The notes beneath the pieces are model-generated. The model ran no database searches and was not told the origin of the DNA. It worked only from the letters and a program-made list of their open reading frames with translations. 64,000 nucleotides of DNA from Dehalococcoidia bacterium (GTDB lineage: Bacteria; Chloroflexota; Dehalococcoidia; UBA6926), in the NCBI GenBank assembly GCA_963665385.1, contig OY762213.1, forward strand, positions 325,793-389,792, written 5' to 3'. A program made the position numbers and the translations under genes. This document shows positions 131-30,767 of the stretch, in pieces. Every line of letters starts with the position of its first letter. The first letter of the stretch is position 1.

Positions 131-200
131 GTCGCGTACTCCTAAAGAAAGGGAACATTCTTCCGGGCGCTGGTCTCCACCGTATAACATCTCCATCCAC

Positions 201-257: not shown

Positions 258-390
258 ACTGCGCCAGCCATACACGCGCGCGAGTTCCTCCTTGACACCT
301 GTATAAAGTGATATAAACTAGTTTGTGTTGCAAACTAAAGCAGGGAATCGACAGGTGGGACTTACCCGAACAAGGGTAGAGGAGGACGCG

Positions 391-1198: not shown

Positions 1199-1510
1199 AT
1201 CATGACGATGCTTGCCGCGCAGGGAGCCGATGACCGAGTCGCCTACGGCTACGTCCAGAAGGAATTGGCCCTGACCGGCGGAAACCTGACAATCCACCTG
1301 CGCAAACTCGAAGACGCGAGCTACGTCGCCATCACAAAAGACTTCATCGACGCGAAGCCCCGCACCTGGATCCAAACGACAGAGACAGGCCGCAACGCCT
1401 ACGCCCGCTACGTGCACAACCTCCGCCAAACCCTAAACCTACAACCCCCCCAACCCCGCCGGCAGACCTCTGGCCAAGAGACTGAGGAAAATCAGCCCAA
1501 ACTCTGGTGA
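1139..1510 (+). CDS. Winged-helix transcriptional regulator (HTH_34/ArsR-PadR-like wHTH)
   Basis: HQPTRLRIMTML...GYVQKELALTGGNLTIHLRKLEDASYVAI matches wHTH (helix-turn-helix plus wing) pattern; GTG start. Confidence 0.6.
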   Translation: MTTNDTPDLDEMIHQPTRLRIMTMLAAQGADDRVAYGYVQKELALTGGNLTIHLRKLEDASYVAITKDFIDAKPRTWIQTTETGRNAYARYVHNLRQTLNLQPPQPRRQTSGQETEENQPKLW

Positions 1511-1832
1511 TGTGGCGTCAAACCCACCCGCCGAACCAATCCCCCGTACCGCATCCTCGACCCACGCCAAATCCTTGCTCCTCTTCTTCCTGCTGCCTGC
1601 CTGCTGAGGAAATGGCTGCGATTGTGACAGCGTCAAATTGCAGGGGATCATTTGGTACCATGACAAAAGCCCCAACATCCCAGCGATGGACTCCTTTTAA
1701 TAAAGCCCCTTAAGTGCGGGCAGAAATTCAAGGAGCCATACTTGACAGGCACTCAGTCCCGATAATAGAATCGTCAAGGCCTTCGAGAGTAAGGTGCGGG
1801 ATCGCAGATTCACTTGTAAGTGAGGATATTTC

Positions 1833-5189: not shown

Positions 5190-5210
5190 AGAAGCGCAAG
5201 AAAAAAGCCG

Positions 5211-5255
5211 CGGCGGGGCTGACGACGGAATAGACGTCCGCCCCGCCGTGTTGCA
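5211..5255 (+). terminator. Possible intrinsic terminator after cadherin-like gene
   Basis: gcggcggggc...gccccgccg inverted repeat followed by tgttg; weak T-tract. Confidence 0.3.
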
Positions 5256-5285
5256 TGAGGCAACTTAGGAGAACGTAGGACCGCC

Positions 5286-7730
5286 ATGAAGAGATCGCTG
5301 AAGATTGCTGTGGTGACCGCGATAGTAGCTGTCTTGGGAACGCTGGCGCTGATACAAGTGGCGGCGCAGCAACCCACAACGACGAGAGAAATCAGCCCCG
5401 CAACGCTGCCGGCGAGTGGAGGTGAGGCAACCGTGACCATCACGATCGCCGGTTCCTACGGCGGAGTTGGAGTGGTGGTGGAGACCCTGCCGGACGGATA
5501 CTCCTACGTTGATGGATCGGGGAGCATAACGCCGACAGTGAGCGGGCAGGATCTCACCTTCGCCCTGGTGGCCGATACGTCGTTCTCCTACAAGGTGATG
5601 GTCGCAGCAGATGTGGAAGCATCAGACGCCCTGATGGGCGTGCTGACATACGGGCTTACTACGAAGAGCAATGTGCCCGTGACGGGTCATACAAGCGTGA
5701 CGGTGGAACCGTCGCAGCAGCCGACAGGCGTCACAGTGACGAGGGGGATTACTCCCGCGGCGGTGGCGGCTGGCGAAGAGGCAACCGTGACCATCACGAT
5801 CGCCGGTTCCTACGGCGGAGTTGGAGTGGTGGTGGAGACCCTGCCAACCGGGTTCTCCTATGTAGCAGGATCGGGGACCATAACGCCGACAGTGAGTGGG
5901 CAGGATCTCACCTTCGCCCTGGTGGCCGATACATCGTTCTCCTATAAGGTGACGGCGTCAGACTCGGAAGGCCAACACGCCTTGGCCGGCGTGCTGACAT
6001 ACGGGCTTATGACGAAGACCAATGTGCCCGTGACGGGCGATGCCAGCGTGACAGTGCAGGCGGCACAGCCGACCGGCGTCACGGCAGCGCGGGCCATCAA
6101 CCCCGCCGCGCTTCCGGCAGGCGGAGAGGCAACCGTGACCGTCACGATTACAGGCGACTACGGCGGAGTTGGGGTGGTGGTGGAGACCCTGCCAACTGGG
6201 TTCTCCTATGTATCAGGATCGGGGACCATAACGCCGACAGTGAGCGGGCAGGATCTCACCTTCGCCTTGGTGGCCGATACATCGTTCTCCTATAAGGTGA
6301 CGGCGCCGGCTGCGGTAAGCCAGCACGTGTTTGCCGGCGAGCTGATATACGGGCTTACTACGAAGACCAATGTGCCCGTGACAGGTGATACGGCTGTGAC
6401 GGGGACGACGGCGTCCCTCACCGTATCGAGGTCCCTCAGCCCTTCTAATGTGCCGCAGAGCGGCGGCCAAGTGACGGTGAGAATCAACATCGTCGGCGAT
6501 TACGGCGGAGTTGGGGTGGTGGTGGAAACCCTGCCAAATGGGTTCTCCTATGTATCCGGATCGGGGAGCATAGCGCCGGAAGTGAACGGGCAGGATCTCA
6601 CCTTCGCCCTGGTGGCCGATACATCGTTCTCCTATAAGGTGGCGGCGCCGGCCTCGGTAGGCCGACACTCGTTTGCCGGCGAGCTGAGATACGGGATTCA
6701 GCAACCTAGATCCGTCCTCTCCGTTACAGGCGATAGGCGCGTGACAGTGGAGGCGCCGCGGACACCGTCTGACCCAGGTGGTCAGCCTCAGGCTAACCGT
6801 TCCCCGGTATTCGAGGAAGGTCGCAGCGCGACGCGCTCGATCGACGAGAATTCCGAGCCCGGGACGGCCGTCGGAGACCCGGTCACCGCCAGGGACCGTG
6901 ACGACGACACACTGATGTACAGCCTCTCTGGGGCAGATGCGGCGCTCTTCAACATCAACGAGAGCAACGGCCAAATTACGACTGCCCAGGGTACGACCCT
7001 GGACTACGAGGCCAGGAACTCCTATGACGTCACCGTGCGGGTCACTGACCCAACCGAAAGAGAAGACGACATCGACATCGCCATCAGGGTGACCAACGTT
7101 GACGAGGCTGGCGCGGTTACACTGTCGCCACAGCAGCCGATGGTCGACACGGAACTGATGGCGACCCTGACGGACCCTGACGGGTCGTTGTCGAGTCTCA
7201 GCTGGGCGTGGGAACGCTCCGCAGACAACACGACCTGGGCCGCCATAGGGGGAGCGGGGGCGAGCGCCTACACGCCGGTGGAGGCGGACGAAGGCCACTA
7301 CCTGAGGGCGACGGTGGCGTACGCCGACGGCCACGGCGGGAACAAGAGCGCGATGATGGCGTTCGCCGACCTGGTGCCGACTACAGCCACACCGGAGCCC
7401 ACAGCCACACCGGAGCCCACGGCCACACCGGAGCCCACGGCCACACCGAGGCCCACGGCCACACCGAGGCCCACAGCCACACCGAGGCCCACAGCCACAC
7501 CGGAGCCCACAGCCATACCGGAGCCCACAGCCATACCGGAGCCCACAGCCACACCGGAGCCCACAGCCATACCGGAGCCCACGGCTGCACCGGAGCCTAC
7601 GGCCACGGTTGGTCCGCCCGTGGAGCCTGAAGATGACGGCGGGTTCCCGCTATGGGCGATTGCCCTGATCGTCATCGGAGTGTTGGTAGCGGGAGGTCTC
7701 GTCTTCTACCTGATCCGGTTGAGGTCGTGA
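5286..7730 (+). CDS. Secreted surface protein: four ~110-aa repeats, cadherin-like module, (TATPEP)n linker, C-terminal TM anchor
   Basis: Signal peptide; repeats of ATVTITIAGSYGGVGVVVETLP...SFSYKV; cadherin-like VTVRVTDP...NVDEAG; C-terminal hydrophobic helix + RLRS tail (sortase/exosortase-like sorting signal); AGGAG SD. Confidence 0.7.
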   Translation: MKRSLKIAVVTAIVAVLGTLALIQVAAQQPTTTREISPATLPASGGEATVTITIAGSYGGVGVVVETLPDGYSYVDGSGSITPTVSGQDLTFALVADTSFSYKVMVAADVEASDALMGVLTYGLTTKSNVPVTGHTSVTVEPSQQPTGVTVTRGITPAAVAAGEEATVTITIAGSYGGVGVVVETLPTGFSYVAGSGTITPTVSGQDLTFALVADTSFSYKVTASDSEGQHALAGVLTYGLMTKTNVPVTGDASVTVQAAQPTGVTAARAINPAALPAGGEATVTVTITGDYGGVGVVVETLPTGFSYVSGSGTITPTVSGQDLTFALVADTSFSYKVTAPAAVSQHVFAGELIYGLTTKTNVPVTGDTAVTGTTASLTVSRSLSPSNVPQSGGQVTVRINIVGDYGGVGVVVETLPNGFSYVSGSGSIAPEVNGQDLTFALVADTSFSYKVAAPASVGRHSFAGELRYGIQQPRSVLSVTGDRRVTVEAPRTPSDPGGQPQANRSPVFEEGRSATRSIDENSEPGTAVGDPVTARDRDDDTLMYSLSGADAALFNINESNGQITTAQGTTLDYEARNSYDVTVRVTDPTEREDDIDIAIRVTNVDEAGAVTLSPQQPMVDTELMATLTDPDGSLSSLSWAWERSADNTTWAAIGGAGASAYTPVEADEGHYLRATVAYADGHGGNKSAMMAFADLVPTTATPEPTATPEPTATPEPTATPRPTATPRPTATPRPTATPEPTAIPEPTAIPEPTATPEPTAIPEPTAAPEPTATVGPPVEPEDDGGFPLWAIALIVIGVLVAGGLVFYLIRLRS
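7381..7606. repeat. 15-bp tandem repeat (about 15 copies) encoding T-A-T/I-P-E/R-P
   Basis: acagccacaccggagccc unit repeated with point variants (gag/agg, aca/ata). Confidence 0.9.
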
Positions 7731-7765
7731 TAGTATCCAGGGCTTAGCTAAGACCAAGGGAAAAA

Positions 7766-7796
7766 GAGGGGGCTTCACATGAAGCCCCCTTTTCTT
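7766..7796 (+). terminator. Rho-independent terminator
   Basis: agggggcttcacatgaagccccct followed by tttcttg. Confidence 0.7.
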
Positions 7797-8304
7797 GTCT
7801 CTGCACGACTGGAGTACGGCCGAGACTTACAGGTGCAGAACCAATGTCAGGGTGAACGCCTGGGAAAGCTCGCCCTCGCAGGTGGTCAGCAGACCGGTTC
7901 TTTGATGCGCCGTCAGTAGTCCCCCCACTATCTGTCGCCTCTTATCCAACCCCGGCCACCCCCAATTCGACTGTTCATGAGAACAGTCTATTTTTGTGTC
8001 TAGTGGGAGACAGAAACGTCGTCCGGCACTGGGGCGGCAGATTCCCAACCTCCATCTAAACAAACTCTTCTCGCTGATGGATGCGTTGACCGTGCAGCGG
8101 GATCGAACGTTCATCGAGGAGAACTACAAGAACGAGAAGTTCAGAGACGGGACGCCATAAACGGGATGGCCAGGGCGCGATACGGTAAGTCTCTACTGGC
8201 GGTGCTCATCGGCGTGGCTGCATGGGGTGTCGGACGGCCATTCACGATGTCCTGCGGGGCAGCCTTGACTTGGGGACAGGTTCATTGTGATGGGGCTGTG
8301 AGGA

Positions 8305-8760
8305 GTGCTCTACTGGCTCCTCTTCAGCGTTTTTGCATGGACACTCGCCCGGCTGCTGACTGTCTACTTCGATGTCGAAGTGGAGAGCGTGACGTACCTC
8401 CAGTTCGTCCGCAGGTTCGGCTTCGTGTTTGCACCCGGCCTCCTCTTGATCGTGGCGCTCCTTGCCGCGCAGGGAGCCGATGACCGAGTCGCCTACGGCT
8501 ACGTCCAGAAGGAACTGGCCCTGACCGGCGGCAACCTCACAATCCACCTGCGCAAACTCGAAGACGCGAGCTACGTCGCCATCACAAAAGACTTCATCGA
8601 CGCGAAGCCCCGCACCTGGATCCAAACGACAGAGACAGGCCGCAACGCCTACGCCCGCTACGTGCACAACCTCCGCCAAACCCTAAACCTGCAACCCCCC
8701 AACCCCGCCGCACCAACCCCCAAGAAGACCCAGACCAGAACCAGCCACGCCTCAACCTGA
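8305..8760 (+). pseudogene. Divergent or degenerate paralog of the wHTH regulator (N-terminal helix replaced by hydrophobic segment)
   Basis: 8462-8706 is about 98% identical to 1210-1452 (C-terminal 85 aa identical to regulator at 1139); only GTG start with poor SD spacing. Confidence 0.4.
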
Positions 8761-8808
8761 AGCGCAAAGCGGTCCCGGCTATCCGGAGTCAGCGATGCGG
8801 GCGCCCCG

Positions 8809-9686
8809 TCACCCGCAGAAGGGCAAGCCGAGTTTGTCGAAGTCGTTGTTGGGCACGCCCTGCAATACACTGGGTACGCACCCGCTCAGCTGGTTGCCGG
8901 AGAGGCTCAGGACTACGAGATTGGAGAGGTTTCCCAGCTCCGGCGGTATCTCCCCGCTCAAGTCGTTGGAGCGGAGGTGCAGCCATTCAAGGTTGACGAG
9001 GTTTCCCAGCTCCGGCGGTATCTCCCCGCTCAAGTCGTTGGACCCGAGATACAGCTTTTGAAGGTTGGAAAGGCTGCCCAACTCCGGCGGTATCTCCCCG
9101 CTCAAGTCGTTGGAGGTGAGGTCCAGCTCCACAAGGTTGGCGAGGTTTCCCAGCTCCGGCGGTATCTCACCTCTCAATTCGTTGCCGCCGAGGTCCAGCT
9201 CCACAAGGTTGGCGAGGTTTCCCAGCTCCGGCGGTATCTCTCCGCTCAACTCGTTGGTGTAGAGGATCAGCCATTCAAGGTTTGCGAGACTGCCCAGCTC
9301 TGGCGGTATCTCCCCGGTCAAGTCCCTGGTGTTGAGGATCAGCGCTATGACCCGGCCGTTGGCGTCGACCCCGACGCCGTGCCAATTATCCAGCGGCGCG
9401 TCGCTCAGCCAGAACGCGTTCCAGCCATGCCAGTTGGGGCCGTCCGTGGCGTTGTATAGCGCCTCCAGCACCTCCCGGTCCTCAGACAGAGGTCCGCTGT
9501 CGGATACGGAAACAGGCGTAGATGTCTCCGTAGACGCTGGCGCCGGCGTATTGCCGGGCGTCATGCCGGGAGCTTGGGTTGACTGCGTGGCCCCTCTGTC
9601 GGCGATTCACCGCCGCAGGCCAGCAAAGCTGTGGAGAGGACCAGCGAGAGACTTATGAGAATTAGATTTCTCGTGATGTCAACCAT
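8809..9686 (-). pseudogene. Plant-type LRR lipoprotein, frameshifted copy
   Basis: 24-residue LRRs LxxLxLxxNxLSGEIPPELGNL; lipoprotein signal MVDITRNLILISLSLVLSTALLACGG (ATG 9686, GGGGGA SD) is out of frame with the LRR body (ATG 9564) because of a 1-bp deletion near 9587 relative to paralog at 9754-10881. Confidence 0.6.
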
Positions 9687-9753
9687 TCATATCCCCCGTT
9701 GAGATAATGGAGAAGGCCCGCTGGATCCTGGTTCCGACGAAAGCCGGCGAGCA

Positions 9754-10881
9754 TCAGCAGTACGGCAGGCCGCCGAGTTCGGACCGGTTCAATTGGCCTT
9801 GCAGGGAACTCGGCACACACCCGCTCAGCTGGTTAACGGAGAGCCACAGCTCCGTTAGGTTGGCGAGGTTGCCCAACTCGGGCGGTATCTCCCCGCTCAG
9901 CTGGTTACTGTAGAGCCGCAGGTCCGTCAGGTTGGCGAGGTTGCCCAGCTCCGGCGGTATCTCCCCGCTCAGCTGGTTATCGTAGAGCAGCAGGTCCGTC
10001 AGGTTGGCGAGGTTGCCCAACTCCGTCGGAATCTCCCCGCTCAGCTGGTTACTGCCGAGCCGCAGGTTCGTCAGGTTGGCGAGGCTGCCCAACTCCGGCG
10101 GAATCTCCCCGCTCAACTGGTTACTGGAGAGGATCAGGTCCGTCAGGTTGGCGAGGTTGCCCAACTCGGGCGGAATCTCCCCGCTCAACTGGTTACCGTT
10201 GAGGTCCAGGTCCCGCAGGTTGGCGAGGGCGCCCAACTCCGTCGGAATCTCCCCGCTCAACTGGTTACTGCCGAGCCACAGGTCCGTCAGGTTGGCGAGG
10301 CTGCCCAACTCGGGCGGAATCTCCCCGCTCAACTGGTTACCGTTGAGGTCCAGGTCCCGCAGGTTGGCGAGGGCGCCCAACTCCGGCGGAATCTCCCCGC
10401 TCAACTGGTTCCAGGCGATCCACAGGTTCGTCAGGTTGGCGAGGTTGCCCAACTCCGGCGGAATCTCCCCGCTCAACTGGTTACTCTGGAGGATCAGCTT
10501 TACGACACGGTCGCTGTTGTCGGTAGTAACGCCGTTCCAGCTGCCCAGCGGTTCGTCGGTCAGCCAGTTGTCACTGTACTTCCAGTTGGGTCCGCCCGTG
10601 GCGTTGTAGAGGGCGACTAGAGCGTCTCTGTCCCGGGACGGAGACCCGCTGTCAAGCGCGGGGATGAAGCTGGGCGCGTCGGCGGACGCGGGCGCCGGCG
10701 TATTGCCGGGCGTCATGCCGGGAGCTTGGGTTGACTGCGTTGGCCCCTCCGTCGGCGATTCACCGCCGCAGGCCACCAGGGACGCCGCGGCAAGCGTCGT
10801 CAGCAGGAGGGCTAGGGTCGCTTGCCGGGCTTTCCTCCGCAGGTCGCGTGGATCCACGTAGACGGACCAGCCTTTGATCAT
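9754..10881 (-). CDS. Plant-type LRR lipoprotein (about 12 LRRs, LRRNT-like cap, C-terminal Cys pair)
   Basis: MIKGWSV...LLTTLAAASLVACGG lipobox; ALYNATGGPNWKYSDNWLTDEPLGSWNGVT cap; repeats GEIPPELGNLANLTxLxLxxNQLS; AGGAGA SD before ATG 10881. Confidence 0.75.
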   Translation of the reverse strand: MIKGWSVYVDPRDLRRKARQATLALLLTTLAAASLVACGGESPTEGPTQSTQAPGMTPGNTPAPASADAPSFIPALDSGSPSRDRDALVALYNATGGPNWKYSDNWLTDEPLGSWNGVTTDNSDRVVKLILQSNQLSGEIPPELGNLANLTNLWIAWNQLSGEIPPELGALANLRDLDLNGNQLSGEIPPELGSLANLTDLWLGSNQLSGEIPTELGALANLRDLDLNGNQLSGEIPPELGNLANLTDLILSSNQLSGEIPPELGSLANLTNLRLGSNQLSGEIPTELGNLANLTDLLLYDNQLSGEIPPELGNLANLTDLRLYSNQLSGEIPPELGNLANLTELWLSVNQLSGCVPSSLQGQLNRSELGGLPYC

Positions 10882-12769: not shown

Positions 12770-13537
12770 CTAGTACGCGGTGTCCAGGTATTCGTCTATA
12801 ACCGCAGAAACCACGTCGAATGCAGGTGCGCCCACGAACTTGGTCATCTGGTCACCGCTAAGGATGAAGATTGTCGGCTCGGTAGTTACGCCGTATTCTT
12901 TTGCCTGGGCCAAGTCCCCGTCGACGATGTGCCTGTAGGTCCCGTTGTCCATGCAAGCGTTAAACTGGGGCCTGTCTAGAACGAGGCTTCCGCCCCGGAC
13001 TTTCACACCAGTCCTGCCTTGGACACCGGTCCGGTTCTGGAACACGCTGTCATGGTATTCCCAGAATGCACCTTGTTCTCCGGCACACTCGGCGCCTTGG
13101 GCCATGATCGGGGAATCGGCTCCGACGACGGCGTAGTGACGGTATTCCATTTTGACCCGTCCGTCGTCCAAGTAGGCGGACCTGATCTCCTGGGCCGTAC
13201 CAAGGGCCCAGCGCCTACAGCTGGGGCATTGGAAGTCGTTGTACTCCAGGACGGTGACTAACGCGTCCCGTGAGCCGAGGACGTTCCAGTCTCGGGTGCT
13301 GGTAGCAGGGGGCGCGGCATCAGGCTCTTCGGTATCGGCGGGGGTTTCTGTGGGATCAGGGGCCTCAGCAGGCGCCGTGGTGGCGGTAGGGTTGGGGGTA
13401 TCCGTTGACCCGCCGCAGGCCCATGCCGCGCCAATTACAAGCGAAAGTAGAAGCAGCGCCACAACCGGCGCTCTCGTGCGTCTACGGAGGAGGACAGACA
13501 AAGTCAACATGCTTGCTTGTACTGGGTCCTGAGGCAA
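12770..13537 (-). CDS. DsbA-family thiol:disulfide oxidoreductase lipoprotein
   Basis: Lipobox AAWACGG; thioredoxin-fold CPSC active site (NDFQCPSCRRW); T/P-rich linker. Confidence 0.7.
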   Translation of the reverse strand: MPQDPVQASMLTLSVLLRRRTRAPVVALLLLSLVIGAAWACGGSTDTPNPTATTAPAEAPDPTETPADTEEPDAAPPATSTRDWNVLGSRDALVTVLEYNDFQCPSCRRWALGTAQEIRSAYLDDGRVKMEYRHYAVVGADSPIMAQGAECAGEQGAFWEYHDSVFQNRTGVQGRTGVKVRGGSLVLDRPQFNACMDNGTYRHIVDGDLAQAKEYGVTTEPTIFILSGDQMTKFVGAPAFDVVSAVIDEYLDTAY

Positions 13538-13979
13538 CGGGTGCAGACCTACATCCGCTGCCTTTTACCATTTATCAAAAGCCGAACGGGATGAACGTTG
13601 GGCCGATACATCCTAGGTGTGTGCCTGTTGGAGTGGGTAACGTTCCTGCCGAAGCGGGGTACCTTGTTACATATTTCGCACTCGGCCAATTTAATCGCCT
13701 TTAGTGTACAATCAGCGCCTATCACCATAGCATATGAGGCCCAGATTTAGAATCTGTAATACCTTAACGGCCTACGCGAGGAAGATGAGCTAGTTCCTTC
13801 GAACAAGCGACCTGACGGAATCTAAGGCGTTTGTTCATTCGTTCGTGAAGAACATCGCCGGCAGATGCAACGAGGCAGTGATTTCCCACATCGTCCCCAT
13901 GCCGGAAGATAGCCCAATCAGAAGGTCCACGAAGCACGTCGTAGACTGGGAAAAAGCCAGTTCGTTCCACCATACCGCA

Positions 13980-14056
13980 TGGTAGCGCGTACGGGATTCG
14001 AACCCGTGATCTCCGCCTTGAGAGGGCGGTGTCCTTGGCCACTAGACGAACGCGCC
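13980..14056 (-). tRNA. tRNA-Glu (anticodon CUC)
   Basis: Cloverleaf GGCGCGT...TTCGAATCCCGT...ACGCGCTACCA; anticodon loop CTCTCAA; close to canonical tRNA-Glu D-arm TTCGTCTAGTGGCC. Confidence 0.85.
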
Positions 14057-16811: not shown

Positions 16812-17585
16812 TTACACGCCGGCGATCTGATAGCCGCCGTCGATGGGCAAAATGTGACCGGTGATGCCGCTTGAAAGATCGCTCAGCAGGAACAACGCCG
16901 CCTTGGCGACCTCATCGTGTGTGATGTTGCGCTGTATTGGCGACCGTTCCGCCTGGATGCGCTTCATGTCCACGTAGCCGTGAATCGCGCGCGATGACAG
17001 CGTGTCCAGAGGCCCCGGCGAGAGAGCGTTCACGCGGATGCCGCGAGGCCCCAACTCATACGCCAACTGCTTGACCTCATTCTCCAGCGCAGCCTTGGCC
17101 GTGCCCATGATGTTGTAGCCGGGGAAGACGCGGTCAGACGCCTGGAACGTCAGCGTCACGATGGTCCCGCCCTCAGGCATCAGTGGCGAAGCGTACCGAG
17201 CGACGGGAATCAGAGAGTACGCGCTCACCTCCAGCGCAATGCGAAATCCGTCGCGCCCCGTCTGTGAGAAATCGCCGCCCAGGTCATCCCGATTCGCAAA
17301 GGCGATGCTGTGGATCAGGAGGTCGACGGACGCCCCGTCCGCCGCAATCTGCCCAAAGGCCGACTCAACATTCTCGTCCTCGGACACATCGCACTCGATG
17401 AGCGTGACGTTCTTCATGCCGTCCGTCAGCTTGCGGATACCGTCGCCGAGCCGCTCGTTCTGGTAGGTCAGATAGAGATTCGCGCCCGCGGAATGCAGCG
17501 CCTGCGCGATGTGCCACGCGATGCTGCGATGATTCGCCACCCCCAGCACAACCGCATTCTTCCCCGAAAGATCAATCGAATACAT
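16812..17585 (-). CDS. fabI: Enoyl-[acyl-carrier-protein] reductase (NADH)
   Basis: GKNAVVLGVANHRSIAWHIAQAL N-terminus and SDR Y-x6-K architecture typical of FabI. Confidence 0.85.
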   Translation of the reverse strand: MYSIDLSGKNAVVLGVANHRSIAWHIAQALHSAGANLYLTYQNERLGDGIRKLTDGMKNVTLIECDVSEDENVESAFGQIAADGASVDLLIHSIAFANRDDLGGDFSQTGRDGFRIALEVSAYSLIPVARYASPLMPEGGTIVTLTFQASDRVFPGYNIMGTAKAALENEVKQLAYELGPRGIRVNALSPGPLDTLSSRAIHGYVDMKRIQAERSPIQRNITHDEVAKAALFLLSDLSSGITGHILPIDGGYQIAGV

Positions 17586-17597
17586 ACCACCGCCCCG

Positions 17598-17771
17598 TCA
17601 TTCCCGCGAAAGCAGGAATCCAGAAATCCATGTCACACAGCGATTCCTATTGTAGCGCGGAGCGGGCAGAGCCTCCGAATCCCCCGCGTAGGCGGGAGCC
17701 CACGGCGCCCGCAGGGCGCTTCCTCTCCGCCATTCCGCCGCTCATGTCATTCTGAGCGCAGCGAAGAATCC
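17598..17771. repeat. Interspersed hairpin repeats R1 (17598-17624) and R3 (17746-17771)
   Basis: gtcattcccgcgaaagcaggaatc and gtcattctgagcgcagcgaagaatcc, same families as at 23.2 and 30.6 kb. Confidence 0.6.
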
Positions 17772-17794
17772 AAAGCCTCTAGGCGCTTGCAGGC

Positions 17795-19357
17795 TCATTC
17801 GGTGGGCCGATGAAAGTACGAAGACGGCCCATCCAACCACCTGTTCTCCAGCTGCGTCTCAACGAGATCTTCGACCCGAGCCATCTCGACACTGTCGGCC
17901 TTTACAGGAGCGCCTGGTTTGACCACCCCTCCAGCAACGTAGACGTGCCGTTTTTCGTAAAGGTAGTCGCATCCAAAAAGGCAGAGCGGCATGACGATGT
18001 AAGGATCACGACGCTCCCCTTCGTTGCAATGCTCGCGACGCTTCTTGTGAGCCGTCACTAAAGCCTCAACAGCAAACTCGCGACCACAGAGGGCGCACAG
18101 TTCCCTTTCTTTGTCCTCGAAGAGCCATTCACTCAAAATGTGTTGCTCCGTGCGTGCCGACTGTTCAGAAGTGGAGTCCGTGTCCCTGAGTTCATCCAGA
18201 CGGTTCCTAAATGTCAGGTAGCGCTCCAACGCCGGTTCGTTTGGGCGCACAGAATCCTGTGTCTCAACGGTTGAATACCTGTAGTTTTGTCTGCCATAGG
18301 ATTCGTCAACAAAGACTAGAGGAGAATTCGTGAGAGCCTTCTGAATAGCGGCCTCAGAATACCTCCCGATATTCTTATCTTCCAAGAAGCGCCTAATTTC
18401 TGGTAGTTGTGTTTCACCCCGTTCCTTCAAATATTGAACTGCATCATTCTCCAACGGACTTAAGGCTGGGGCTCTACCCTTAGGTCTAAAGGTCCGTGAG
18501 AGGCTGAGATTATTGCCTTGCGCAACGAAGAGCCGAGATGTGCGAAGATACTGCTCAATTGTTTCGACGGGGGGAAGCAGGTCCTCGTTTATCCGCTTTA
18601 GTGCCCTATGAATTGACGGAGCCAATTTACCCACGTCGCATACTTGGAAAGCAGTCAGGGCCTTTCTTGCGGCGTTGATTAGGGCATTCTGTTTTTCTTC
18701 GAACAAATACCAAGTGACACCTCCCGCCTCTCTAGTCCACGTGGTGGGGTTGCCGCGGATGATTTGGATTGCAAACCCCTTGTTAACGCGATAGAAATTG
18801 TCTACCATCTCCAGATCCTCGAAACGAACGATGCCCCGTAGTCCCTGAAGCTTCCTTGCTGTGGCAAGGTGCGCCTTAAGAGAGTCCAATTGGCCTTGGT
18901 CTACCAAGAAGAAGTCATTTGAATCGTATGTGCCACTGCTGGTGACTCTTTGGAGTTCGGGGGTGTAGGAATCGTGTCTGTGGGGCAGACTCATGTCGTC
19001 GGCTAGGCGCAAGAGGCCCGGTAAGCTCAAGGATCCTATGGGAAAGCCCCGACGTAGTGATTCTGCTTGAAGTTCAGAAGCAGTCCAAAACGCCCGAGAC
19101 TCTACCGTATCTAGGACTTTCTGCAATGACGGCAATGTGGCGAAAGGCGATTGACTGCGGAAGTCTCTCTGCAAGATCTGTCCAACCCGCTGTTTACTCA
19201 AACCGAAGTCGTCCCCAGCTTGTTGAAGCGTTGGCAATGGTGGTTGCCCAAAGCCGTAGTAATGGCAAATGAGGTCGATGTTTCGAAGTTTTTCTCCCCG
19301 CGAATGCTCTCTAATATTCTTGTCAAGGAATGCACGTATTTCGCCAAGTATAGTCAT
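17795..19357 (-). CDS. Orphan protein with N-terminal sigma-70 region-4-like HTH and C-terminal HNH nuclease motif
   Basis: N-terminal LSKQRVGQILQRD HTH; C-terminal CALCG...VTAHKKRREHCNEG...PLCLFGCD fits CxxC...H...N...C...C HNH pattern; local GC about 50% vs about 62% flanks. Confidence 0.55.
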   Translation of the reverse strand: MTILGEIRAFLDKNIREHSRGEKLRNIDLICHYYGFGQPPLPTLQQAGDDFGLSKQRVGQILQRDFRSQSPFATLPSLQKVLDTVESRAFWTASELQAESLRRGFPIGSLSLPGLLRLADDMSLPHRHDSYTPELQRVTSSGTYDSNDFFLVDQGQLDSLKAHLATARKLQGLRGIVRFEDLEMVDNFYRVNKGFAIQIIRGNPTTWTREAGGVTWYLFEEKQNALINAARKALTAFQVCDVGKLAPSIHRALKRINEDLLPPVETIEQYLRTSRLFVAQGNNLSLSRTFRPKGRAPALSPLENDAVQYLKERGETQLPEIRRFLEDKNIGRYSEAAIQKALTNSPLVFVDESYGRQNYRYSTVETQDSVRPNEPALERYLTFRNRLDELRDTDSTSEQSARTEQHILSEWLFEDKERELCALCGREFAVEALVTAHKKRREHCNEGERRDPYIVMPLCLFGCDYLYEKRHVYVAGGVVKPGAPVKADSVEMARVEDLVETQLENRWLDGPSSYFHRPTE

Positions 19358-19396
19358 AGATTAAAGTCACTCCTTAGGTTAGTGCCTGCGCTTGCC

Positions 19397-20683
19397 CTAC
19401 CCCCCCGCCGTCCGCGCCGCCACCCGCACATCCCTAGCGAAGCTGGTCCGTAGTGCGAGAGCAATTGCGAACATCACCGCGATCGCCCCGCCGATGCCCA
19501 CCGCCGTCGGCGCGCCGAACCACTCCGCCAGCGCCCCCACCTGCAGGCCGCCCAGCGGAATCAGGCTGTACGTCAGGCTGAACACGCCCATCACCCGGCC
19601 CCGCAGGTCCTCCGGCACCGCGCTCTGCAGCAGCGTCAGATTGGTTATTTGGGACAACGAGTTAAAGGTTCCCGATAGGAATAGCGCGCCAAGCGACAGC
19701 CACAGGACCGTGCTGAATGCGAACAGCATCACCATCGCCCCAAACAGTCCGCCGCCGCCCAGCAACAAGACGAGCGGCCAGCGACCCTTCACCCAGAACG
19801 CCGCAAGGCCCGTGCCGATGAGCCCGCCCGCCGCCGATGCCCCCAACATCATCCCCATGCCGTCCGCGCCTATGCCCAGGATGTCCCGCGCGAAGACCGG
19901 CATCAGTTGGATATACGCCACGCCAAAGAAACTGTCCACGAACGTCAGCAGGATAAGACTCGCGAAGAGGTTGCGACGTGCGATGAACGTGATCCCCTCG
20001 AACAGTTCCTTGAACACGTTGCCGCGAACCCGATCCACGCGGGGAATCCGCACGAAAAAGAGGAGCAGCGTGCCAAGTCCGTAGCCCAGGGTTACCGACC
20101 CGAACGTCGCCGCGGAACCGATGCGCTCGATCAGCACTCCGCCCAGACCCGGGCCAAACACCCGTGTCCCTTGCCACACGGACGAGCTGAGCGCCAGGGC
20201 GTTCATCAGCAGCCGTCGGTCCGGAATCAGCGCCGGGACCACCGCCGTGCGTGTCGGCTGATCGATTCCCTGGATGACTCCGATGGCTGCGGACGCCGCC
20301 AGCAGGTGCCACGGTGCGAGTACCTCCCCAAATGTCAGCATCATCAGGACCGTCACCGTGATGGTCATGCAGACCTGCGTGGCGATAAGCAGTGCCAGCC
20401 GACTGACCCGGTCTGCCGCCACCCCACCAATCAGGTTCACGCTGATCGTGCCGAACCCCATGGCGAAACCCAGGTAGCCGAGGAAGATCTCCGAATTGGT
20501 CAGCTCATACCCCTCCCACGCAATGACGATGCGCAGGATCTGCCAGCCCATCACGAACGAGACCGCGCTGAACCAGTAATTCCGGAAATTGGGGACGGCC
20601 AGAGAGCCGAGAGGAGACGTAACGGCGCGGTGCGTCTGCTCTTGCTCCTGCTGTTCAGTATCCGTTTCGCGCGGAGTGGACAT
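19397..20683 (-). CDS. MFS transporter
   Basis: 12 predicted TM helices, MFS-like loop motifs; start MSTPRE (alternative upstream ATG 20722). Confidence 0.75.
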   Translation of the reverse strand: MSTPRETDTEQQEQEQTHRAVTSPLGSLAVPNFRNYWFSAVSFVMGWQILRIVIAWEGYELTNSEIFLGYLGFAMGFGTISVNLIGGVAADRVSRLALLIATQVCMTITVTVLMMLTFGEVLAPWHLLAASAAIGVIQGIDQPTRTAVVPALIPDRRLLMNALALSSSVWQGTRVFGPGLGGVLIERIGSAATFGSVTLGYGLGTLLLFFVRIPRVDRVRGNVFKELFEGITFIARRNLFASLILLTFVDSFFGVAYIQLMPVFARDILGIGADGMGMMLGASAAGGLIGTGLAAFWVKGRWPLVLLLGGGGLFGAMVMLFAFSTVLWLSLGALFLSGTFNSLSQITNLTLLQSAVPEDLRGRVMGVFSLTYSLIPLGGLQVGALAEWFGAPTAVGIGGAIAVMFAIALALRTSFARDVRVAARTAGG

Positions 20684-20934
20684 TAACCTCGTTCCGCGAA
20701 TCCCAGGGCAAGCCTGCCCCATACGTGATAGGGGCGGGGGCGGGGAGGAATCCGTAGGCGCATATAATACAGCGGATGCCGTTGCCCACGCCGCCGGTGT
20801 GGACTCTCACCGGGGCGCCAGTGCGAGCGGCATCTCTGGGGGATACGTGTCCGCATTCGTTGAACAGAGTGCCGGTCCGCGCGAATCGCGTCGGCAACGC
20901 CGCGCGCCCTCTGGCAAACGCAACCGCTCAAGCA

Positions 20935-23200: not shown

Positions 23201-23310
23201 CGTCATTTCCGCGAAAGCATGCCCGCGTCCCCATTCACCCTGAGCCTGTCGAAGGGTGCTCCAATGGCATCCTGAGCCTTCCTATGTCATTCTGAGCGCA
23301 GCGAAGAATC
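23201..23310. repeat. Cluster of hairpin repeats R1(degenerate)-R2-R2(partial)-R3
   Basis: cattcaccctgagcctgtcgaagggtg (6-bp stem caccct/agggtg) and gtcattctgagcgcagcgaagaatc. Confidence 0.6.
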
Positions 23311-23331
23311 ACATACCAACGGGAGCAGCAA

Positions 23332-23661
23332 GTGCCGGCATTCGATGATTTCACAGGAACCGTGCGGGGGACGCCCGTCGTCACCCGCGTCATGGAGAGC
23401 ATGATGATAGAGGCCGCGCAGGCCCTGCGAGACATCTGCCGCACCTTCCAGGCGACGGGCGAGCCGATGGGCGGTCACCACCTCCCCGCCGGCGGCTACA
23501 TGGGTGAAATGATCGTCCGCGCGCTCATCGAGGCCGATCTCATCGAGGAAGTCGAGGGAGAAGAGCGCGGCTTCATGCGACGCTACAAGCCCACCAAGAA
23601 CGGCGAAAAGACCTACGCCAAGCTAGACAAAGAAGACGCCTTCTCCCGCCGCGCAACCTAG
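23332..23661 (+). CDS. Hypothetical protein flanked by repeat elements
   Basis: GTG start with GGGAG SD; no recognisable motif. Confidence 0.3.
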   Translation: MPAFDDFTGTVRGTPVVTRVMESMMIEAAQALRDICRTFQATGEPMGGHHLPAGGYMGEMIVRALIEADLIEEVEGEERGFMRRYKPTKNGEKTYAKLDKEDAFSRRAT

Positions 23662-23664
23662 ACC

Positions 23665-23688
23665 GTCATTCCCGCGAAAGCGGGAATC
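23665..23688. repeat. R1 hairpin repeat copy
   Basis: attcccgcgaaagcgggaat perfect 8-bp stem. Confidence 0.6.
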
Positions 23689-23771
23689 CAGAGACGCCTA
23701 AGACTCCGATGCCGGAACGCGGCGAACCAACGTATTCAATAACCCAATACGAATCGCGAACCGAGAAAAAA

Positions 23772-23957: not shown

Positions 23958-24704
23958 CTAATCGGTCAAGATAGATCGGGCAATTGGTTCGAGCACGCGC
24001 TGGACTTCCTCATCAAGCTCGTCCTGCGGGTAGTGGACGGGTTGCTTGGCCGCGCCGGGCCCGCGGCCGGGCCATCGTTTGGCTAGAGCTTTTGCAAGGT
24101 GAGGGAATTCCTTAAAGTCAAGTAGCCTACACCGACTCTGGGCATCTATATTCTGAAGCCAACCTTGGAGTGAAATACGGAGCTTTAGAGATCTCAATGC
24201 AGAGCGGGTATGGATTTCACGGGCATTGGTCAGACTAGAACCAAATGTGAATTGGGCGTCTTTCAATTCCTGATCCTGTAACCAGAGGCCACGGGCGAAC
24301 ACATCCCGTTCAATTCGTTCGGGGTCGGATTCTCGTGCCGGAATAAGTTCTTGCCAACTGGAGTTTGTCAGGCCCGAATTCCGTATACCTAACCGACATT
24401 TGGCCCCAAGGGCTTGCCAGAGAAACTTCTGCTCGCCTGGCTCGAGATTCGTGGATTTGAGCAAGTGTGAAATCGACAGTGCCCGCCCCAATGACCACCG
24501 CCGTACGAATGCTAACTCTGCTTGAGATTCAGCCTCGACGGAGATGACGAGTTCCAGTGCATTGTCCAGCATGTCGTCGATTTCACGGTCAAGATCCTCG
24601 GCAATGGCTCGGTGCTCCTCTTCTCCGAACCGGTAACGGCGTGTTGTGCGCACGCGATCATCGTGACTACCAGAATCAGATTCTGACCAGAGCAAGACCG
24701 GCAT
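23958..24704 (-). CDS. Hypothetical protein, third gene of HARE-HTH/GHKL operon (translationally coupled)
   Basis: ATGA start/stop overlap with upstream ATPase gene; 248 aa, no recognisable motif. Confidence 0.5.
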   Translation of the reverse strand: MPVLLWSESDSGSHDDRVRTTRRYRFGEEEHRAIAEDLDREIDDMLDNALELVISVEAESQAELAFVRRWSLGRALSISHLLKSTNLEPGEQKFLWQALGAKCRLGIRNSGLTNSSWQELIPARESDPERIERDVFARGLWLQDQELKDAQFTFGSSLTNAREIHTRSALRSLKLRISLQGWLQNIDAQSRCRLLDFKEFPHLAKALAKRWPGRGPGAAKQPVHYPQDELDEEVQRVLEPIARSILTD

Positions 24705-27253
24705 CAGTGACTCTCCTCATACATGCGCATCATGTGCGCGGCGCAGTTCCGAAAATCCTCCACAAAGTCTATGTACGGCACCTCAGACTGGTTCCCGCCA
24801 GCCCCCTCCAGCAATTCCATCATCTCCACAAAGCGCCCCCACTTTTCGCTGTCAACCCCCGGCGGCTCACTTGTGCAGAGATCGTCCAGACGAGTTCTGT
24901 CATGGTCTTTCCAAGCTGGCTCTAGTGCCCATTGGATAAGCGCTTCGCAGGTGATTTCAAGCAAAAAAGAGTTGCGCCTTTCGGTTCCATTGGCTGCATC
25001 TGCCTCCATCAATTCCCGGTTTGTGGCATATCGCTCAGGGAACTGGAGCACTGTCTCTCCGTCGATTTCCTTGAGCTGCCAACGAGGTAGCCTCTCGTCT
25101 GGCCGTTGGTCTAGTCGGAACGGTAATCCCCCTTGATTCGGCGGATCAACTTCAATGTGGAGCATGTAAGACGCCGCAGCGGAATCAAGGCTACCATCGG
25201 TATCAAAGAGATCAGCGTTTAACTGATGTCGACCTGGCTCAACTGGGATAGCGATTGCGTTCTCGTCAGGCAAGGGTAACTTATCCGGTGCCACGAAGAT
25301 AATGTCACCCATCCAGACTGCGTGCTGATCGGACGTGTCTCCTTCTGGTGTACCACGGAGAGAACGTGGCTCTCCATCGGCAAGCATTGGGGTTGCCTCC
25401 GAAAGACTGGCATTCAGAGAAACGTCTATAACTCTAGGCGTATTGTTGTGAGCGTTTATCTGCGCCGCCACCCTTTCACCATAGTTAATGCGTTCCCTGC
25501 CCGAGGCGGATCGTGTCTGGTTTTCGACTGAGATGGATAATGTGAGTGGATCACGCTCAGGGTTCTGCGGGTCTTGATGCACGTAAATGGAACGAGAAGC
25601 GCGTGCAACCTGTCGCCCATCATGCTGAACGCGCGCCGTCAGCTTCCATTTGCCCTGCAGAGCAAGCTGAAGCTGATCCGGTCTAGCGGCATTGCGGACT
25701 ATCTGGAGATTACCGACCTTCAAATTCCCTTCTCTGTTATAGAAGCTAATCGCCTCATCTGTTCGTACTGAGACCCTTACCGATTCATCCACGTGCTGAG
25801 CCTCTAGAGAGACGGTCACATTTGCGGGGAAAGACGAAGAACTTGTGACAAGCACCTGAATATTCTCCAGTAGCTGTCCCCAATCGACGCGTGCTACTGT
25901 CGAATCAGGGAAAGACAAGGAGAGTGAGCAGTTCCAGGACTCCGTTGGCTGCTTCCCGCTGGTTCCGAACCATTGCAGAATTTCGCGGGCAATGTCCGTC
26001 TGTAGTGCTGGCGTAGGTGGACGCGCCGGTTCCTGCATCCACCCCAAGTCCTTCGCGAAGGCTTCGACAGCGCTCTCGACTTGTCTGTAGATTGCCTGCA
26101 CAAGACCTTGTTTCCTGTCAAACTTGTGATGCTGTGGCGACTCAAGATTACGAAGTTCCTTTTCCAACGATTGATCGAATTCCACGAATCCCCGGAACCC
26201 GGACCGCCTGCCTGGGGGAATAAAGCCCGACAACTCTCTATCCCCGCTACCTATAGTTGTTATCCACTGGTGACCGCGTAGAAGCTGAACGCCTTCAAAT
26301 TGCGCATCATCACTCTCCGCATCCGTGGATTGCAGCCGTTCGTCATGTATGAGGACGATTCGCTTTATCCGCAATCCGTCCCCAAGGTCTACATTCTCAG
26401 TTGATCGCACTTCGACACCTTTAGGCTGTGAGCCTATCCAGGGTTCGTCTTGCCACCATGATGGGACGGTAACTGTATCCTCGCGCCGTGTCTCCTCATC
26501 AATCACTCTAATCTCTAGCGCACCGGTCTGGACGGCGCGCCACCAGCAGCGCCGCAGCCACTGCACCAGTTCTCCATTCTTGACGGCCGTCACCGCCTCC
26601 TCAGACAGGTAAGGGACGGCAACACGGGTGCCGACTTTTTTGAGCGGCTCAAGTCCGAGGTCTATCTCTATTCCGGTTTCGTCCGTGAATTGACCACTGA
26701 CCAATTCCTCTGCTTCGGAATCTTGCCAGGGGGGTGACTGAATTGTGTCTACAGGATTAGCGTTGCGAACACCCAGCCTATATAGGCCGTCGGCAAGAAG
26801 CGTGTCGTACAACATCATCATACGGCGTCGTCCGGGTGCAGAAGGTGGCGAGGAATGATACAGGAAGGCCGACTTACCCTGTCCCCTCGATCCTCGAGCT
26901 GAATCATCTGACTTCTTGGTAAAGCCCTGACCCTCGAATGCAGCCCAATTCTCATCCGTTTCCAATTCGTAACCCCGCTCACTGAGTTCAGCCTGAGAAA
27001 GGGCAGGGCCGCGTAGGCCGTAAGTGCCGGAATCCGTCACTGTCAAGAGGTGACGTGTTCCCTCGTATCGTGACTCCTGTTTTCGAAGCCGATACTCCAC
27101 TCTGACTATCGGACTAGCGTGCTTGGCGTCCAAAGAGTTTTGTACCGGCTCCTGGGCAAGCGCCCGAATTGGGCCATTGTCGCCGTAACTCTGGATGATC
27201 GATTGGACTTGTTGCACCATATCGCTTGGCGCAGGTTGATAGTTTGAAGCCAT
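24704..27253 (-). CDS. MORC/MutL-like GHKL (Bergerat-fold) ATPase, large multidomain protein
   Basis: N-box EPVQNSLDAK, G1 box VTDSGTYGL, G2 box GSRGQGKSAF (MORC-type GxGxKSA); about 600-aa uncharacterised C-terminal region; start MASNYQ at 27253 with GAGAGGGGAGGG SD (longer ORF to 27391 would overlap upstream gene). Confidence 0.65.
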   Translation of the reverse strand: MASNYQPAPSDMVQQVQSIIQSYGDNGPIRALAQEPVQNSLDAKHASPIVRVEYRLRKQESRYEGTRHLLTVTDSGTYGLRGPALSQAELSERGYELETDENWAAFEGQGFTKKSDDSARGSRGQGKSAFLYHSSPPSAPGRRRMMMLYDTLLADGLYRLGVRNANPVDTIQSPPWQDSEAEELVSGQFTDETGIEIDLGLEPLKKVGTRVAVPYLSEEAVTAVKNGELVQWLRRCWWRAVQTGALEIRVIDEETRREDTVTVPSWWQDEPWIGSQPKGVEVRSTENVDLGDGLRIKRIVLIHDERLQSTDAESDDAQFEGVQLLRGHQWITTIGSGDRELSGFIPPGRRSGFRGFVEFDQSLEKELRNLESPQHHKFDRKQGLVQAIYRQVESAVEAFAKDLGWMQEPARPPTPALQTDIAREILQWFGTSGKQPTESWNCSLSLSFPDSTVARVDWGQLLENIQVLVTSSSSFPANVTVSLEAQHVDESVRVSVRTDEAISFYNREGNLKVGNLQIVRNAARPDQLQLALQGKWKLTARVQHDGRQVARASRSIYVHQDPQNPERDPLTLSISVENQTRSASGRERINYGERVAAQINAHNNTPRVIDVSLNASLSEATPMLADGEPRSLRGTPEGDTSDQHAVWMGDIIFVAPDKLPLPDENAIAIPVEPGRHQLNADLFDTDGSLDSAAASYMLHIEVDPPNQGGLPFRLDQRPDERLPRWQLKEIDGETVLQFPERYATNRELMEADAANGTERRNSFLLEITCEALIQWALEPAWKDHDRTRLDDLCTSEPPGVDSEKWGRFVEMMELLEGAGGNQSEVPYIDFVEDFRNCAAHMMRMYEESH

Positions 27254-27272
27254 GGCTCGAGCCCTCCCCTCT

Positions 27273-27755
27273 CTAGCCGCCCCGCGTCCGGCGCCGCGCC
27301 GGCCGTTGCCGCGCCCCCACATTTCGGGCATTTGGAAAGTCCTTACGAAGACCATAGAAGCCCTTGGACGTAGGCCGCACGAAGCGTTCATCTAGTACGA
27401 GTCGCGCCACCAGCGTGGCAGGAGGATCGTTGCCGTTGATTTGTCCACCGAGCCGCTGCACTTCCTTCGCTAGGTCCTTGTAATACATCGGCTTGTTCGG
27501 CTGCTGCAGCAACACCTTCTCCGCTAGATCGGTTATCGATTCTCCATCGGAGCGATGTTCAGCTGGACTGCTTGCTGTTGAACTGTCCGTCGACGTTTCA
27601 ACATGCTCATCGGCAAGTAGACCGTCCACGTGGCGGAGCCGTTCAATGATTTTGGCCAAGCGTTGTTCTGATTCGGCAATCTTTTCTCGGACCTCTTCCA
27701 ACTCCGCCCGCAGGCTTGTTCGTTCCGTCTGTAACATTCGCTCTAACACGGTCAT
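27273..27755 (-). CDS. Coiled-coil + HARE-HTH domain protein
   Basis: N-terminal coiled coil; C-terminus MYYKDLAKEV...ATLVARLVLDERFVRPTSKGFYGLRKDF matches HARE-HTH / RNAP delta N-domain pattern (DGRF...WGLR); GGAGGGG SD. Confidence 0.55.
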   Translation of the reverse strand: MTVLERMLQTERTSLRAELEEVREKIAESEQRLAKIIERLRHVDGLLADEHVETSTDSSTASSPAEHRSDGESITDLAEKVLLQQPNKPMYYKDLAKEVQRLGGQINGNDPPATLVARLVLDERFVRPTSKGFYGLRKDFPNARNVGARQRPARRRTRGG

Positions 27756-29063: not shown

Positions 29064-29109
29064 CGCCCTGAGCGTAGTCGAATGGTCTCCCTGAGCCTGT
29101 CGAAGGGCC
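29064..29109. repeat. Two R2 repeat copies (one degenerate)
   Basis: ccctgagcctgtcgaagggcc. Confidence 0.5.
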
Positions 29110-30458: not shown

Positions 30459-30701
30459 GTCGTTCCCGTGCTTGACACGGGAACCCAGCCCCCCGTTCAT
30501 CCTGAGCCTGTCGAAGGGTGACCCTCTCCCGTCACCCCCGCCCCCTCTTCGTCATTCCCGCGCAGGCGGGAATCTGAATCACGGTATGCAGCCAACCTCC
30601 GTGACGCTCCCCCCTCATTCCGGCGAATGCCGGAATCCATCGGAACTCCCCGCATGGTGGACTGGCCTAGCGGTCTGTCATTCTGAGCGCAGCGAAGAAT
30701 C
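30459..30701. repeat. Dense cluster of five hairpin repeats (R1 variant, R2, R1, R1', R3)
   Basis: gttcccgtg-cttga-cacgggaac; catcctgagcctgtcgaagggtg; cattcccgcgcaggcgggaatc; cattccggcgaatgccggaatc; gtcattctgagcgcagcgaagaatcc. Confidence 0.7.
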
Positions 30702-30767
30702 CAAGACCGTGTTTGACACAGCAGATGTACACATCACCATGTATGTACTACGTGAGAGGAGTAAACC

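Follow-up and report, generated by a model that had tools for sequence, protein, structure and literature searches.

Lying between two conserved genes of a Dehalococcoidia bacterium is a gene of markedly lower GC content, and the question it raises is what its product does and how it came to be there. The DNA analysed, referred to here as the window, is a stretch of 64,000 nucleotides (assembly GCA_963665385.1, contig OY762213.1, positions 325,793–389,792). A first-pass annotation made from the sequence had singled out a 520-residue, low-GC gene between fabI and a major facilitator superfamily (MFS) gene, and this description holds. The open reading frame (ORF) at 17795–19357 on the minus strand is complete, with an ATG start and 520 codons followed by a stop codon; its GC content is 0.514, against 0.607 in the 6-kb flanks, and a sliding GC profile dips to 0.49–0.53 across this gene only. 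The gene is foreign cargo in a polymorphic slot, and its product combines an array of DNA-binding domains with an HNH domain whose catalytic residues are intact, with neither a conserved partner gene nor a linked methyltransferase. With slightly better than even confidence, we take the product to be a stand-alone, horizontally mobile restriction-type DNA endonuclease, most likely defending its hosts against phages or other invading DNA.

An array of DNA-binding domains followed by an HNH domain

The protein was modelled with AlphaFold2 (AF2) from a 69-sequence alignment, with a predicted local distance difference test score (pLDDT) of 91.8 and a predicted template-modelling score (pTM) of 0.87. 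It is composed of an N-terminal helix-turn-helix (HTH) domain, four winged-helix (WH) domains, two linker helices, an HNH core and C-terminal helices. All are encoded on the minus strand, and residue ranges are followed below by window positions.

The C-terminal part had been read in the first-pass annotation as an HNH or His-Me finger domain, and both profile and fold comparisons bear this out. Preceding the core are two linker helices (residues 372–414; 18116–18244), in which a conserved R402-x-E404-Q405...WLF segment aligns with RRGQGIFRSRL of VcaM4I, an EVE-HNH Type IV enzyme (PDB 6yex; PMC7897488). The ββα core itself (residues 415–482; 17912–18115), delimited by profile, domain-only model and column counts, has strands at residues 433–437 and 455–459 and a helix at 463–468 in the AF2 model, and is followed by C-terminal helices (residues 483–520; 17798–17911) with conserved W507, G510, Y514 and F515. 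A profile of the C-terminal ~155 residues has the VcaM4I HNH domain as its sole match in the PDB (E 0.0044). Modelled separately, the domain (pLDDT 91.4) again has VcaM4I as its top Foldseek match (probability 1.00, template-modelling score 0.51); the other matches are weak (E≥0.35) and include Cap5, Cas9 HNH, TagI, Gme nicking HNH and Hpy99I among unrelated folds.

The catalytic residues are conserved throughout the family. In VcaM4I, H224 activates the water, N241 is structural and D250 and D254 are metal ligands; the H224A, D250A and D254A mutants are strongly impaired, and N241A has a mild effect (PMC7897488). Aligned with H224 is H437, invariant in 69 of 69 members; D464 aligns with D250 and E468 with D254, each present in 68 of 69 (the exceptions being a His and an Asp, respectively). 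The two proteins share the motifs R-x-[GE]-Q, AH[IK]K, ERLD and D-x-L-[FY]-[DE], at a sequence identity of about 12–15%; both have helices before the HNH core, and both stand alone without a methyltransferase. They differ in that VcaM4I, of ~309 residues, carries an N-terminal EVE (PUA) base-flipping reader, whereas the 520-residue protein studied here is without a PUA domain. Five cysteines (C421, C424, C444, C459 and C463) are invariant in the family. Of these, C421, C424, C459 and C463, with C444 in addition, would form a putative zinc site of the CxxC...CxxxC type found in zinc-stabilised HNH domains, whereas VcaM4I aligns with the first cysteine only and its description mentions no zinc (PMC7897488).

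Two rearranged relatives support the C-terminal part as a nuclease module. In one, P0206, the same N-terminal module (residues 1–363) is fused to a canonical PF01844 HNH domain (E 8e-10), which replaces the C-terminal part of the type described here. In the other, a Rickettsiales metagenome-assembled genome (MAG; NZHE01000004.1, L063:471-4220), a 464-residue protein sharing the HNH module alone is encoded between two co-oriented PF00145 5-methylcytosine (m5C) methylases, an operon that is a candidate Type IIS-like restriction-modification (R-M) system with an unannotated nuclease. The P0206 gene (L158/L159:6001-7506), found on 13 contigs, lies inside a capsule/O-antigen cluster between Wzt and a Capsule_synth gene. 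Separately, 320-residue proteins from loci L061 and L062 were considered as a sequence bridge to the EVE-HNH enzymes and rejected, as phmmer gave no PDB match for them.

Occupying the roughly 350 middle residues that had earlier been left unassigned are four tandem WH domains, each built of three helices and a hairpin in the AF2 secondary structure. WH1 (residues 76–153; 18899–19132), WH2 (177–222; 18692–18829), WH3 (223–290; 18488–18691) and WH4 (298–364; 18266–18466) are all supported by AF2, Foldseek and per-domain identity. WH1 is the most variable of them, with a mean pairwise identity of 28% across the family, and is joined to WH2 by a long connecting helix in the AF2 model (residues 154–176; 18830–18898). 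Whole-chain Foldseek matches are weak and are mostly to tandem-WH proteins (UFL1/DDRGK1, RPC62, ScpB, cullins and PadR/MecI-type regulators), with VcaM4I in addition; the Pfam scan gave a faint HTH_32 match at residues 279–342.

At the N terminus is a four-helix HTH (residues 1–72; 19142–19357), assigned from a PDB profile match, PF04545 and column counts. Its likeness to sigma-70 region 4, noted in the first-pass annotation, is right at the level of profiles: the family profile matches region 4 of SigA/RpoD in the PDB with an E-value of 4e-7, along with many more chains, and 7 of the 69 members reach PF04545 individually. The N-terminal 70 residues align with region 4, including the TLEE and TRER[IV]RQI segments. 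The window copy itself scores 11.8 bits against PF04545, short of the gathering score of 24.1 bits, and the family consensus helix TRER[VI]RQI has diverged in it to SKQRVGQI; across the family, R57 is kept in 62 of 69 members and Q60 in 65. Unlike sigma-70 factors, the protein is without regions 1–3, and it is therefore not a sigma factor: region 4 alone was matched, region 2 together with region 4 was not found, and the NCBIfam SigB model gives 11 bits against a cut-off of 464 bits. The short motifs quoted in the first-pass annotation are all present where it had placed them, with LSKQRVGQILQRD at residues 53–65, CALCG at 421–425, VTAHKKRREHCNEG at 434–447 and PLCLFGCD at 457–464.

A polymorphic slot and a patchy family

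The gene is flanked by a fabI-like enoyl-ACP reductase gene (16812–17585, minus strand; adh_short_C2 in syntenic loci) and by an MFS transporter gene (MFS_1/MFS_3; 19397–20722, minus strand), whose stop codon precedes the ATG by 39 nt. In three related Dehalococcoidia genomes, a homologue occupies an identical MFS–gene–fabI–hisS–LysR context. The flanking proteins of these syntenic loci are 84–98% identical (fabI 96–98%, MFS 89–96%, hisS 89–94%), whereas the protein between them is only 43–51% identical. Rfam and promoter/terminator scans of the locus gave no signal above chance.

The slot was surveyed by retrieving 80 marine metagenome loci with the window fabI and mapping the slot in each. 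In more distant relatives (L079–L082) it is empty, with the MFS and fabI genes 100–110 bp apart. In L078 (contig LXNJ01000258.1), whose flanks are near-identical to those of the window (fabI and MFS 98%, hisS 96%), it holds a 1.7-kb filler without a homologue of the gene. This filler comprises a low-GC gene for a 303-residue protein (L078:4343-5254), all of whose listed homologues carry PF18864, which we take to be the AbiTii abortive-infection domain, the search having shown the accession alone; a gene for a 119-residue aspartyl-protease-like protein follows. In a further Dehalococcoidia MAG (OZ242191.1, L058:6507-10039), four co-oriented genes (395, 418, 267 and 96 residues) without Pfam or PADLOC matches fill the slot, which also keeps a remnant of the HNH-coding end at 10001–10318; its content could be a multi-gene cassette. 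By blastn, DNA homology between the window and L078 breaks off at 17679 and, right at the MFS stop, at 19396, and the intervening 17680–19395, without DNA homology to L078, is therefore a swappable cassette. The first-pass annotation had named a conserved chromosomal nuclease in syntenic context as the case that would speak against its proposal; synteny is seen, yet in close relatives the slot is empty or otherwise filled.

Differences between alleles of the slot are unevenly spread along the gene. Between the window and L001, DNA similarity is confined to the first ~110 bp and to the 3′ end that codes for the HNH domain (~80%), and is undetectable over the ~1 kb coding for the WH array. At the protein level, the WH domains of this pair are 39–48% identical, against 79–87% for the linker and HNH core, and across the syntenic alleles the corresponding ranges are 27–48% for the WH domains and 74–87% for the HNH core. 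The nuclease has therefore been conserved and the recognition array replaced or diversified. A conserved nuclease with a diverged recognition part is a pattern known from the target-recognition domains of restriction systems. Judged by its alternative contents, the slot acts as a small hotspot for defence genes.

A second GC dip (0.515–0.525) lies at window 13400–14000, just past the LysR gene. The corresponding regions of two syntenic genomes (L001:13782-15300 and L002:14470-16892) contain a HigB-toxin gene and a gene for a protein of ~407 residues, with an AbiJ_NTD4 protein in L002, which suggests another variable region.

The protein is not the orphan it was first thought to be. A word-indexed search yielded 75 full-length relatives, nearly all of 505–535 residues and all unnamed or labelled ‘hypothetical’, and a profile search of 1.84 billion cluster representatives yielded 309 at E≤1e-30 and 1,771 at E≤1e-10. 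When one genome per species was scanned for the family pattern, a full-length copy turned up in ~55 of 185,579 species (~0.03%) from many phyla. Orphan status holds only with respect to the curated families of Pfam, NCBIfam and PADLOC, which gave no match. Carriers include many Dehalococcoidia MAGs, Spirochaetia, Planctomycetota, Acidobacteriota, several Bacillaceae and the genera Pseudomonas, Acinetobacter, Morganella, Halomonas, Vibrio, Moritella, Agrobacterium, Reyranella, Cupriavidus and Pandoraea. The distribution is rare, patchy and cross-phylum, and in 45 of 54 loci the family gene has a lower GC content than the DNA on either side (mean difference −0.08). A search with the C-terminal profile for new architectures returned mostly truncated fragments, truncated family copies being common; several plasmid proteins that share the C-terminal module alone are labelled ‘HNH endonuclease’ by PGAP. 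Apparent ‘N-terminal-only’ proteins were rejected as a separate sensor family: a DDE transposase gene directly follows the gene of at least one such protein, P0169, which is for that reason probably truncated.

No partner gene is shared across the family when all ORFs of 65 loci are clustered. The neighbours that do recur (a tRNA synthetase, a TPR/Trans_reg_C protein, GGACT, an M28 peptidase and a Schlafen-type helicase) are lineage-specific and were rejected as partners. Within two genes on either side, nearly all of 47 loci have no methyltransferase, and none adjoins the gene in the window; the only methyltransferases that PADLOC and a crude motif screen placed beside the family gene, in L003/L004 and L047, are parts of complete HpaII and Eco57I-type systems. 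An ORF of 895 residues with a DPPY-like motif (window 24704–27391, minus strand), 5 kb away, was considered as a possible methyltransferase and has no PDB relative; it lies in a stretch of lower GC (0.53–0.55 around 24000–24800).

The defence or mobile context proposed earlier is seen in part: the gene is foreign cargo and such contexts occur in some loci, but others are plainly housekeeping. Directly upstream of a Vibrio copy is a complete Gabija pair. A Pseudomonas copy has a Septu-like AAA_15 and HNH pair upstream, a reverse transcriptase downstream and an adjacent integrase; the Acinetobacter copy neighbours Vsr, Dcm and HpaII genes, the Halobacillus copy stands beside an Eco57I-type R-M pair, and in Rubellimicrobium GmrSD is two genes away. 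Neighbours in other loci include a PhdYeFM-PIN pair, a Schlafen-type helicase, NERD-UvrD and PHP-AAA_15 proteins, and Zorya III, BREX, Dpd and DISARM-like genes lie within 10 kb of the family gene in some loci. The sole full-length plasmid copy is surrounded by an integrase and by transposases of the IS66 and IS3 types.

No copy was found in 50,697 GenBank phage genomes. Six IMG/VR contigs carry the family gene, one of which is an SfIV/SfII-like enterobacterial prophage, and this prophage allele is present in 5 of 5,426 complete E. coli genomes. In E. coli O39:NM F8704-2 (L161:9001-10554, WP_032361615.1), the gene is located at the prophage's accessory end, past the genes for the tail fibre and for sugar modification, and adjoins dinI and the chromosomal prfC. 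PGAP labels this protein a ‘sigma-70 family RNA polymerase sigma factor’, probably a misannotation arising from the region-4-like head alone.

Probable restriction-type defence and its alternatives

In the mechanism that we favour, the N-terminal ~365 residues, comprising the sigma-70 region-4-like (sigma4-like) HTH and the four WH domains, would bind DNA and set target specificity, and the C-terminal ~155 residues would cleave it as an HNH nuclease of the VcaM4I type. H437 would act as the general base that activates the attacking water, the catalytic metal would be bound by D464 and E468, and the Cys4 cluster probably coordinates a structural zinc ion. Gating of the nuclease may fall to the two linker helices, as it does to the linker helix in VcaM4I. 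Because no methyltransferase accompanies the gene, self-DNA would probably be spared through a requirement for a feature that the host lacks; such a dependence is favoured also because a single nuclease gene that is swapped between genomes must be harmless on arrival. DNA modification, as in Type IV enzymes, is the leading candidate for this feature, the nearest nuclease relative being of Type IV and winged-helix/HNH Type IV enzymes having been published (PMC11037411); to dependence on modification we give roughly one chance in three.

Single-protein HNH restriction enzymes with a winged-helix reader are thus a known kind. The published examples resemble the present protein in having one or more WH readers and an HNH domain encoded by a single gene that is rarely adjacent to a methyltransferase; they comprise 224–283 residues (one wH) or 375–496 residues (PUA and wH) and are mostly haloarchaeal (PMC11037411). 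They have neither four WH domains nor a sigma4-like head, and no sequence link to their wH domain was found. The combination of such a head, four WH domains and a VcaM4I-type HNH domain with a putative zinc site is not among the published winged-helix/HNH restriction enzymes, and a literature search returned no description of the architecture.

Weighing against the restriction-type reading are several points. The defence function is one that we infer from the sequence and its contexts, and the single focal sequence gave nothing above noise in Pfam, NCBIfam and PADLOC scans: none of the 5,027 models of PADLOC-DB v2 and no HNH family of Pfam or NCBIfam matched at E≤10, phmmer matched no PDB chain, and phrog_3106 (HNH) reached an E-value of only 0.15. 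The structural asparagine of HNH domains, N241 in VcaM4I, is replaced by I454 (66 Ile and 3 Val in the family), although this residue would not be essential, the N241A mutant of VcaM4I being only mildly impaired. With regard to modification dependence, no PUA, SRA or EVE reader domain was recognised in the protein, and Foldseek gave its WH domains no demonstrated similarity to the DpnI-type N6-methyladenine (6mA) reader. Shifting sequence specificity would explain a hypervariable recognition array no less well than modification sensing would, and the coexistence of the Acinetobacter copy with m5C methylases and of the Halobacillus copy with N6-methyladenine (m6A) methylases limits the modifications that could be targeted. 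Many loci, the window included, have purely housekeeping neighbours. A comparison of near and far PADLOC hits was rejected as an enrichment test, the far set also containing strong defence hits; the association with defence genes is therefore claimed for a subset of loci.

Four other explanations were considered. A selfish, free-standing homing-type HNH endonuclease, cutting the empty MFS/fabI slot or another cognate site and spreading by recombinational repair without benefit to the host, would account for a single low-GC HNH gene without a partner, inserted precisely and with sharp breakpoints into an intergenic slot with no occupant in relatives. We nevertheless consider it unlikely. Alleles in the same slot are just 43–51% identical between flanks of 84–98%, whereas near-identical copies would be expected after recent homing, and the unrelated PF18864 cargo of L078 uses the same breakpoints. 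The family also occurs at many unrelated sites in other taxa, has no intron or intein context and no match in the phage genomes searched, and has defence-island neighbours in several loci. Some of the same variability is what a sequence-specific Type II or IIS-like enzyme would show, a hypervariable recognition array being suited to specificity switching. In such an enzyme, built on the plan of FokI and with its protecting methyltransferase encoded elsewhere in the genome, ~365 residues of HTH and WH recognition domains would precede a nuclease of ~155 residues, and the occurrence of the same HNH module between two m5C methylases in L063 lends this some support. In FokI (PDB 1fok), too, several HTH/WH-like subdomains make up the recognition part and cleavage is left to a distinct domain at the C terminus, but that domain is of the PD-(D/E)XK type, a cognate methyltransferase is present, and the fold match is weak (E 0.29, probability 0.08). 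The lack of a methyltransferase near the gene in nearly all of the 47 loci, with complete R-M systems of their own in the two exceptions, and the lethality on arrival of a single-gene swapping cassette that required an unlinked methylase make this account improbable as well.

A third alternative is a nuclease of the abortive-infection type, in which the sigma4-like head or the WH array would sense a phage protein or transcription takeover and free an autoinhibited, non-specific HNH domain. Phage anti-sigma factors, T4 AsiA among them, are known to target region 4 of sigma-70, and most members keep the sigma4.2-like helix TRER[VI]RQI. Removal of the linker makes the VcaM4I HNH domain non-specifically toxic (PMC7897488), in keeping with release of this kind. 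A further point in favour is that the other cargo seen in the slot is what we take to be an Abi-type gene. On the other side, DNA binding is the simplest role for WH and HTH arrays and the helix of the window copy has diverged to SKQRVGQI, and we regard the idea as having only a slim chance. In a more specific version, no likelier, the head, whose TRER[VI]RQI helix corresponds to the −35-contacting helix of sigma-70, might read −35-type promoter DNA on invaders or act as a decoy for AsiA-like or appropriator proteins, so that phage takeover of transcription would release the HNH domain and the WH array would tune the target range; if true, this would give single-protein immune nucleases a new principle of sensing. 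Least probable by far is a housekeeping or regulatory role, as a sigma or transcription factor or a conserved chromosomal repair nuclease. The region-4 similarity, the one PGAP sigma-factor label and the synteny in several Dehalococcoidia genomes point that way, against which stand the absence of sigma regions 2 and 3, the SigB score far below its cut-off, the occurrence in ~0.03% of species and in so few E. coli genomes, and the invariant catalytic HNH residues. The presence/absence polymorphism of the slot effectively excludes this reading.

Methyltransferase-free, single-protein restriction enzymes are a growing and incompletely catalogued arm of bacterial immunity, to which the present family, with hundreds of cluster representatives that are invisible to Pfam, NCBIfam and PADLOC and one protein mislabelled as a sigma factor, would belong on the restriction-type reading. 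Its natural alleles, with the nuclease core kept and the recognition array replaced, are a ready-made experiment, and the E. coli alleles make the family directly testable. If active, it could give annotation pipelines a new defence family, could yield modular DNA readers that look programmable, and could serve as a small, clear-cut case of a defence hotspot among streamlined marine Dehalococcoidia.

Repeats in the window

Hairpin repeats had been described as flanking the gene. They are present, on one side, but are dispersed and do not delimit the insert. The first, a repetitive extragenic palindromic (REP)-like hairpin of family D10 (17588–17626, with the repeated unit at 17597–17623; five copies in the window), belongs to the shared flank and not to the cassette; its 8-bp hairpin folds better than shuffled sequences (z −2.4). 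The second, of family D13 (17745–17777, with the repeated unit at 17746–17770; three copies in the window), falls within the cassette and, folding no better than shuffles (z +0.2), does not form a significant hairpin. Elements of the D10 and D13 types recur at window 217, 23285, 23656, 30542, 30605 and 30676. Because the repeats are dispersed and the blastn breakpoints lie elsewhere, they were rejected as island borders or attachment (att) sites.

Three short dispersed REP-like families, GTCATTCCCGCGAAAGCGGGAATCC, TGTCATTCTGAGCGCAGCGAAGAATC and CCTGAGCCTGTCGAAGGG, co-cluster in intergenic mosaics resembling bacterial interspersed mosaic elements (BIMEs), at window 217–255, 17588–17626, 23229–23694, 29080–29109 and 30491–30708; an Rfam scan of one cluster gave no match. 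Of a different kind is the repetition at 1–10800, where highly repetitive coding DNA contains duplicated 1.37-kb blocks (1966–4702), ~350-nt repeats (5364–6707), an array with an 18-nt period (7347–7652) and one of 15 copies with a 72-nt period (8809–10623). This region probably encodes one or more giant repeat-rich surface proteins.

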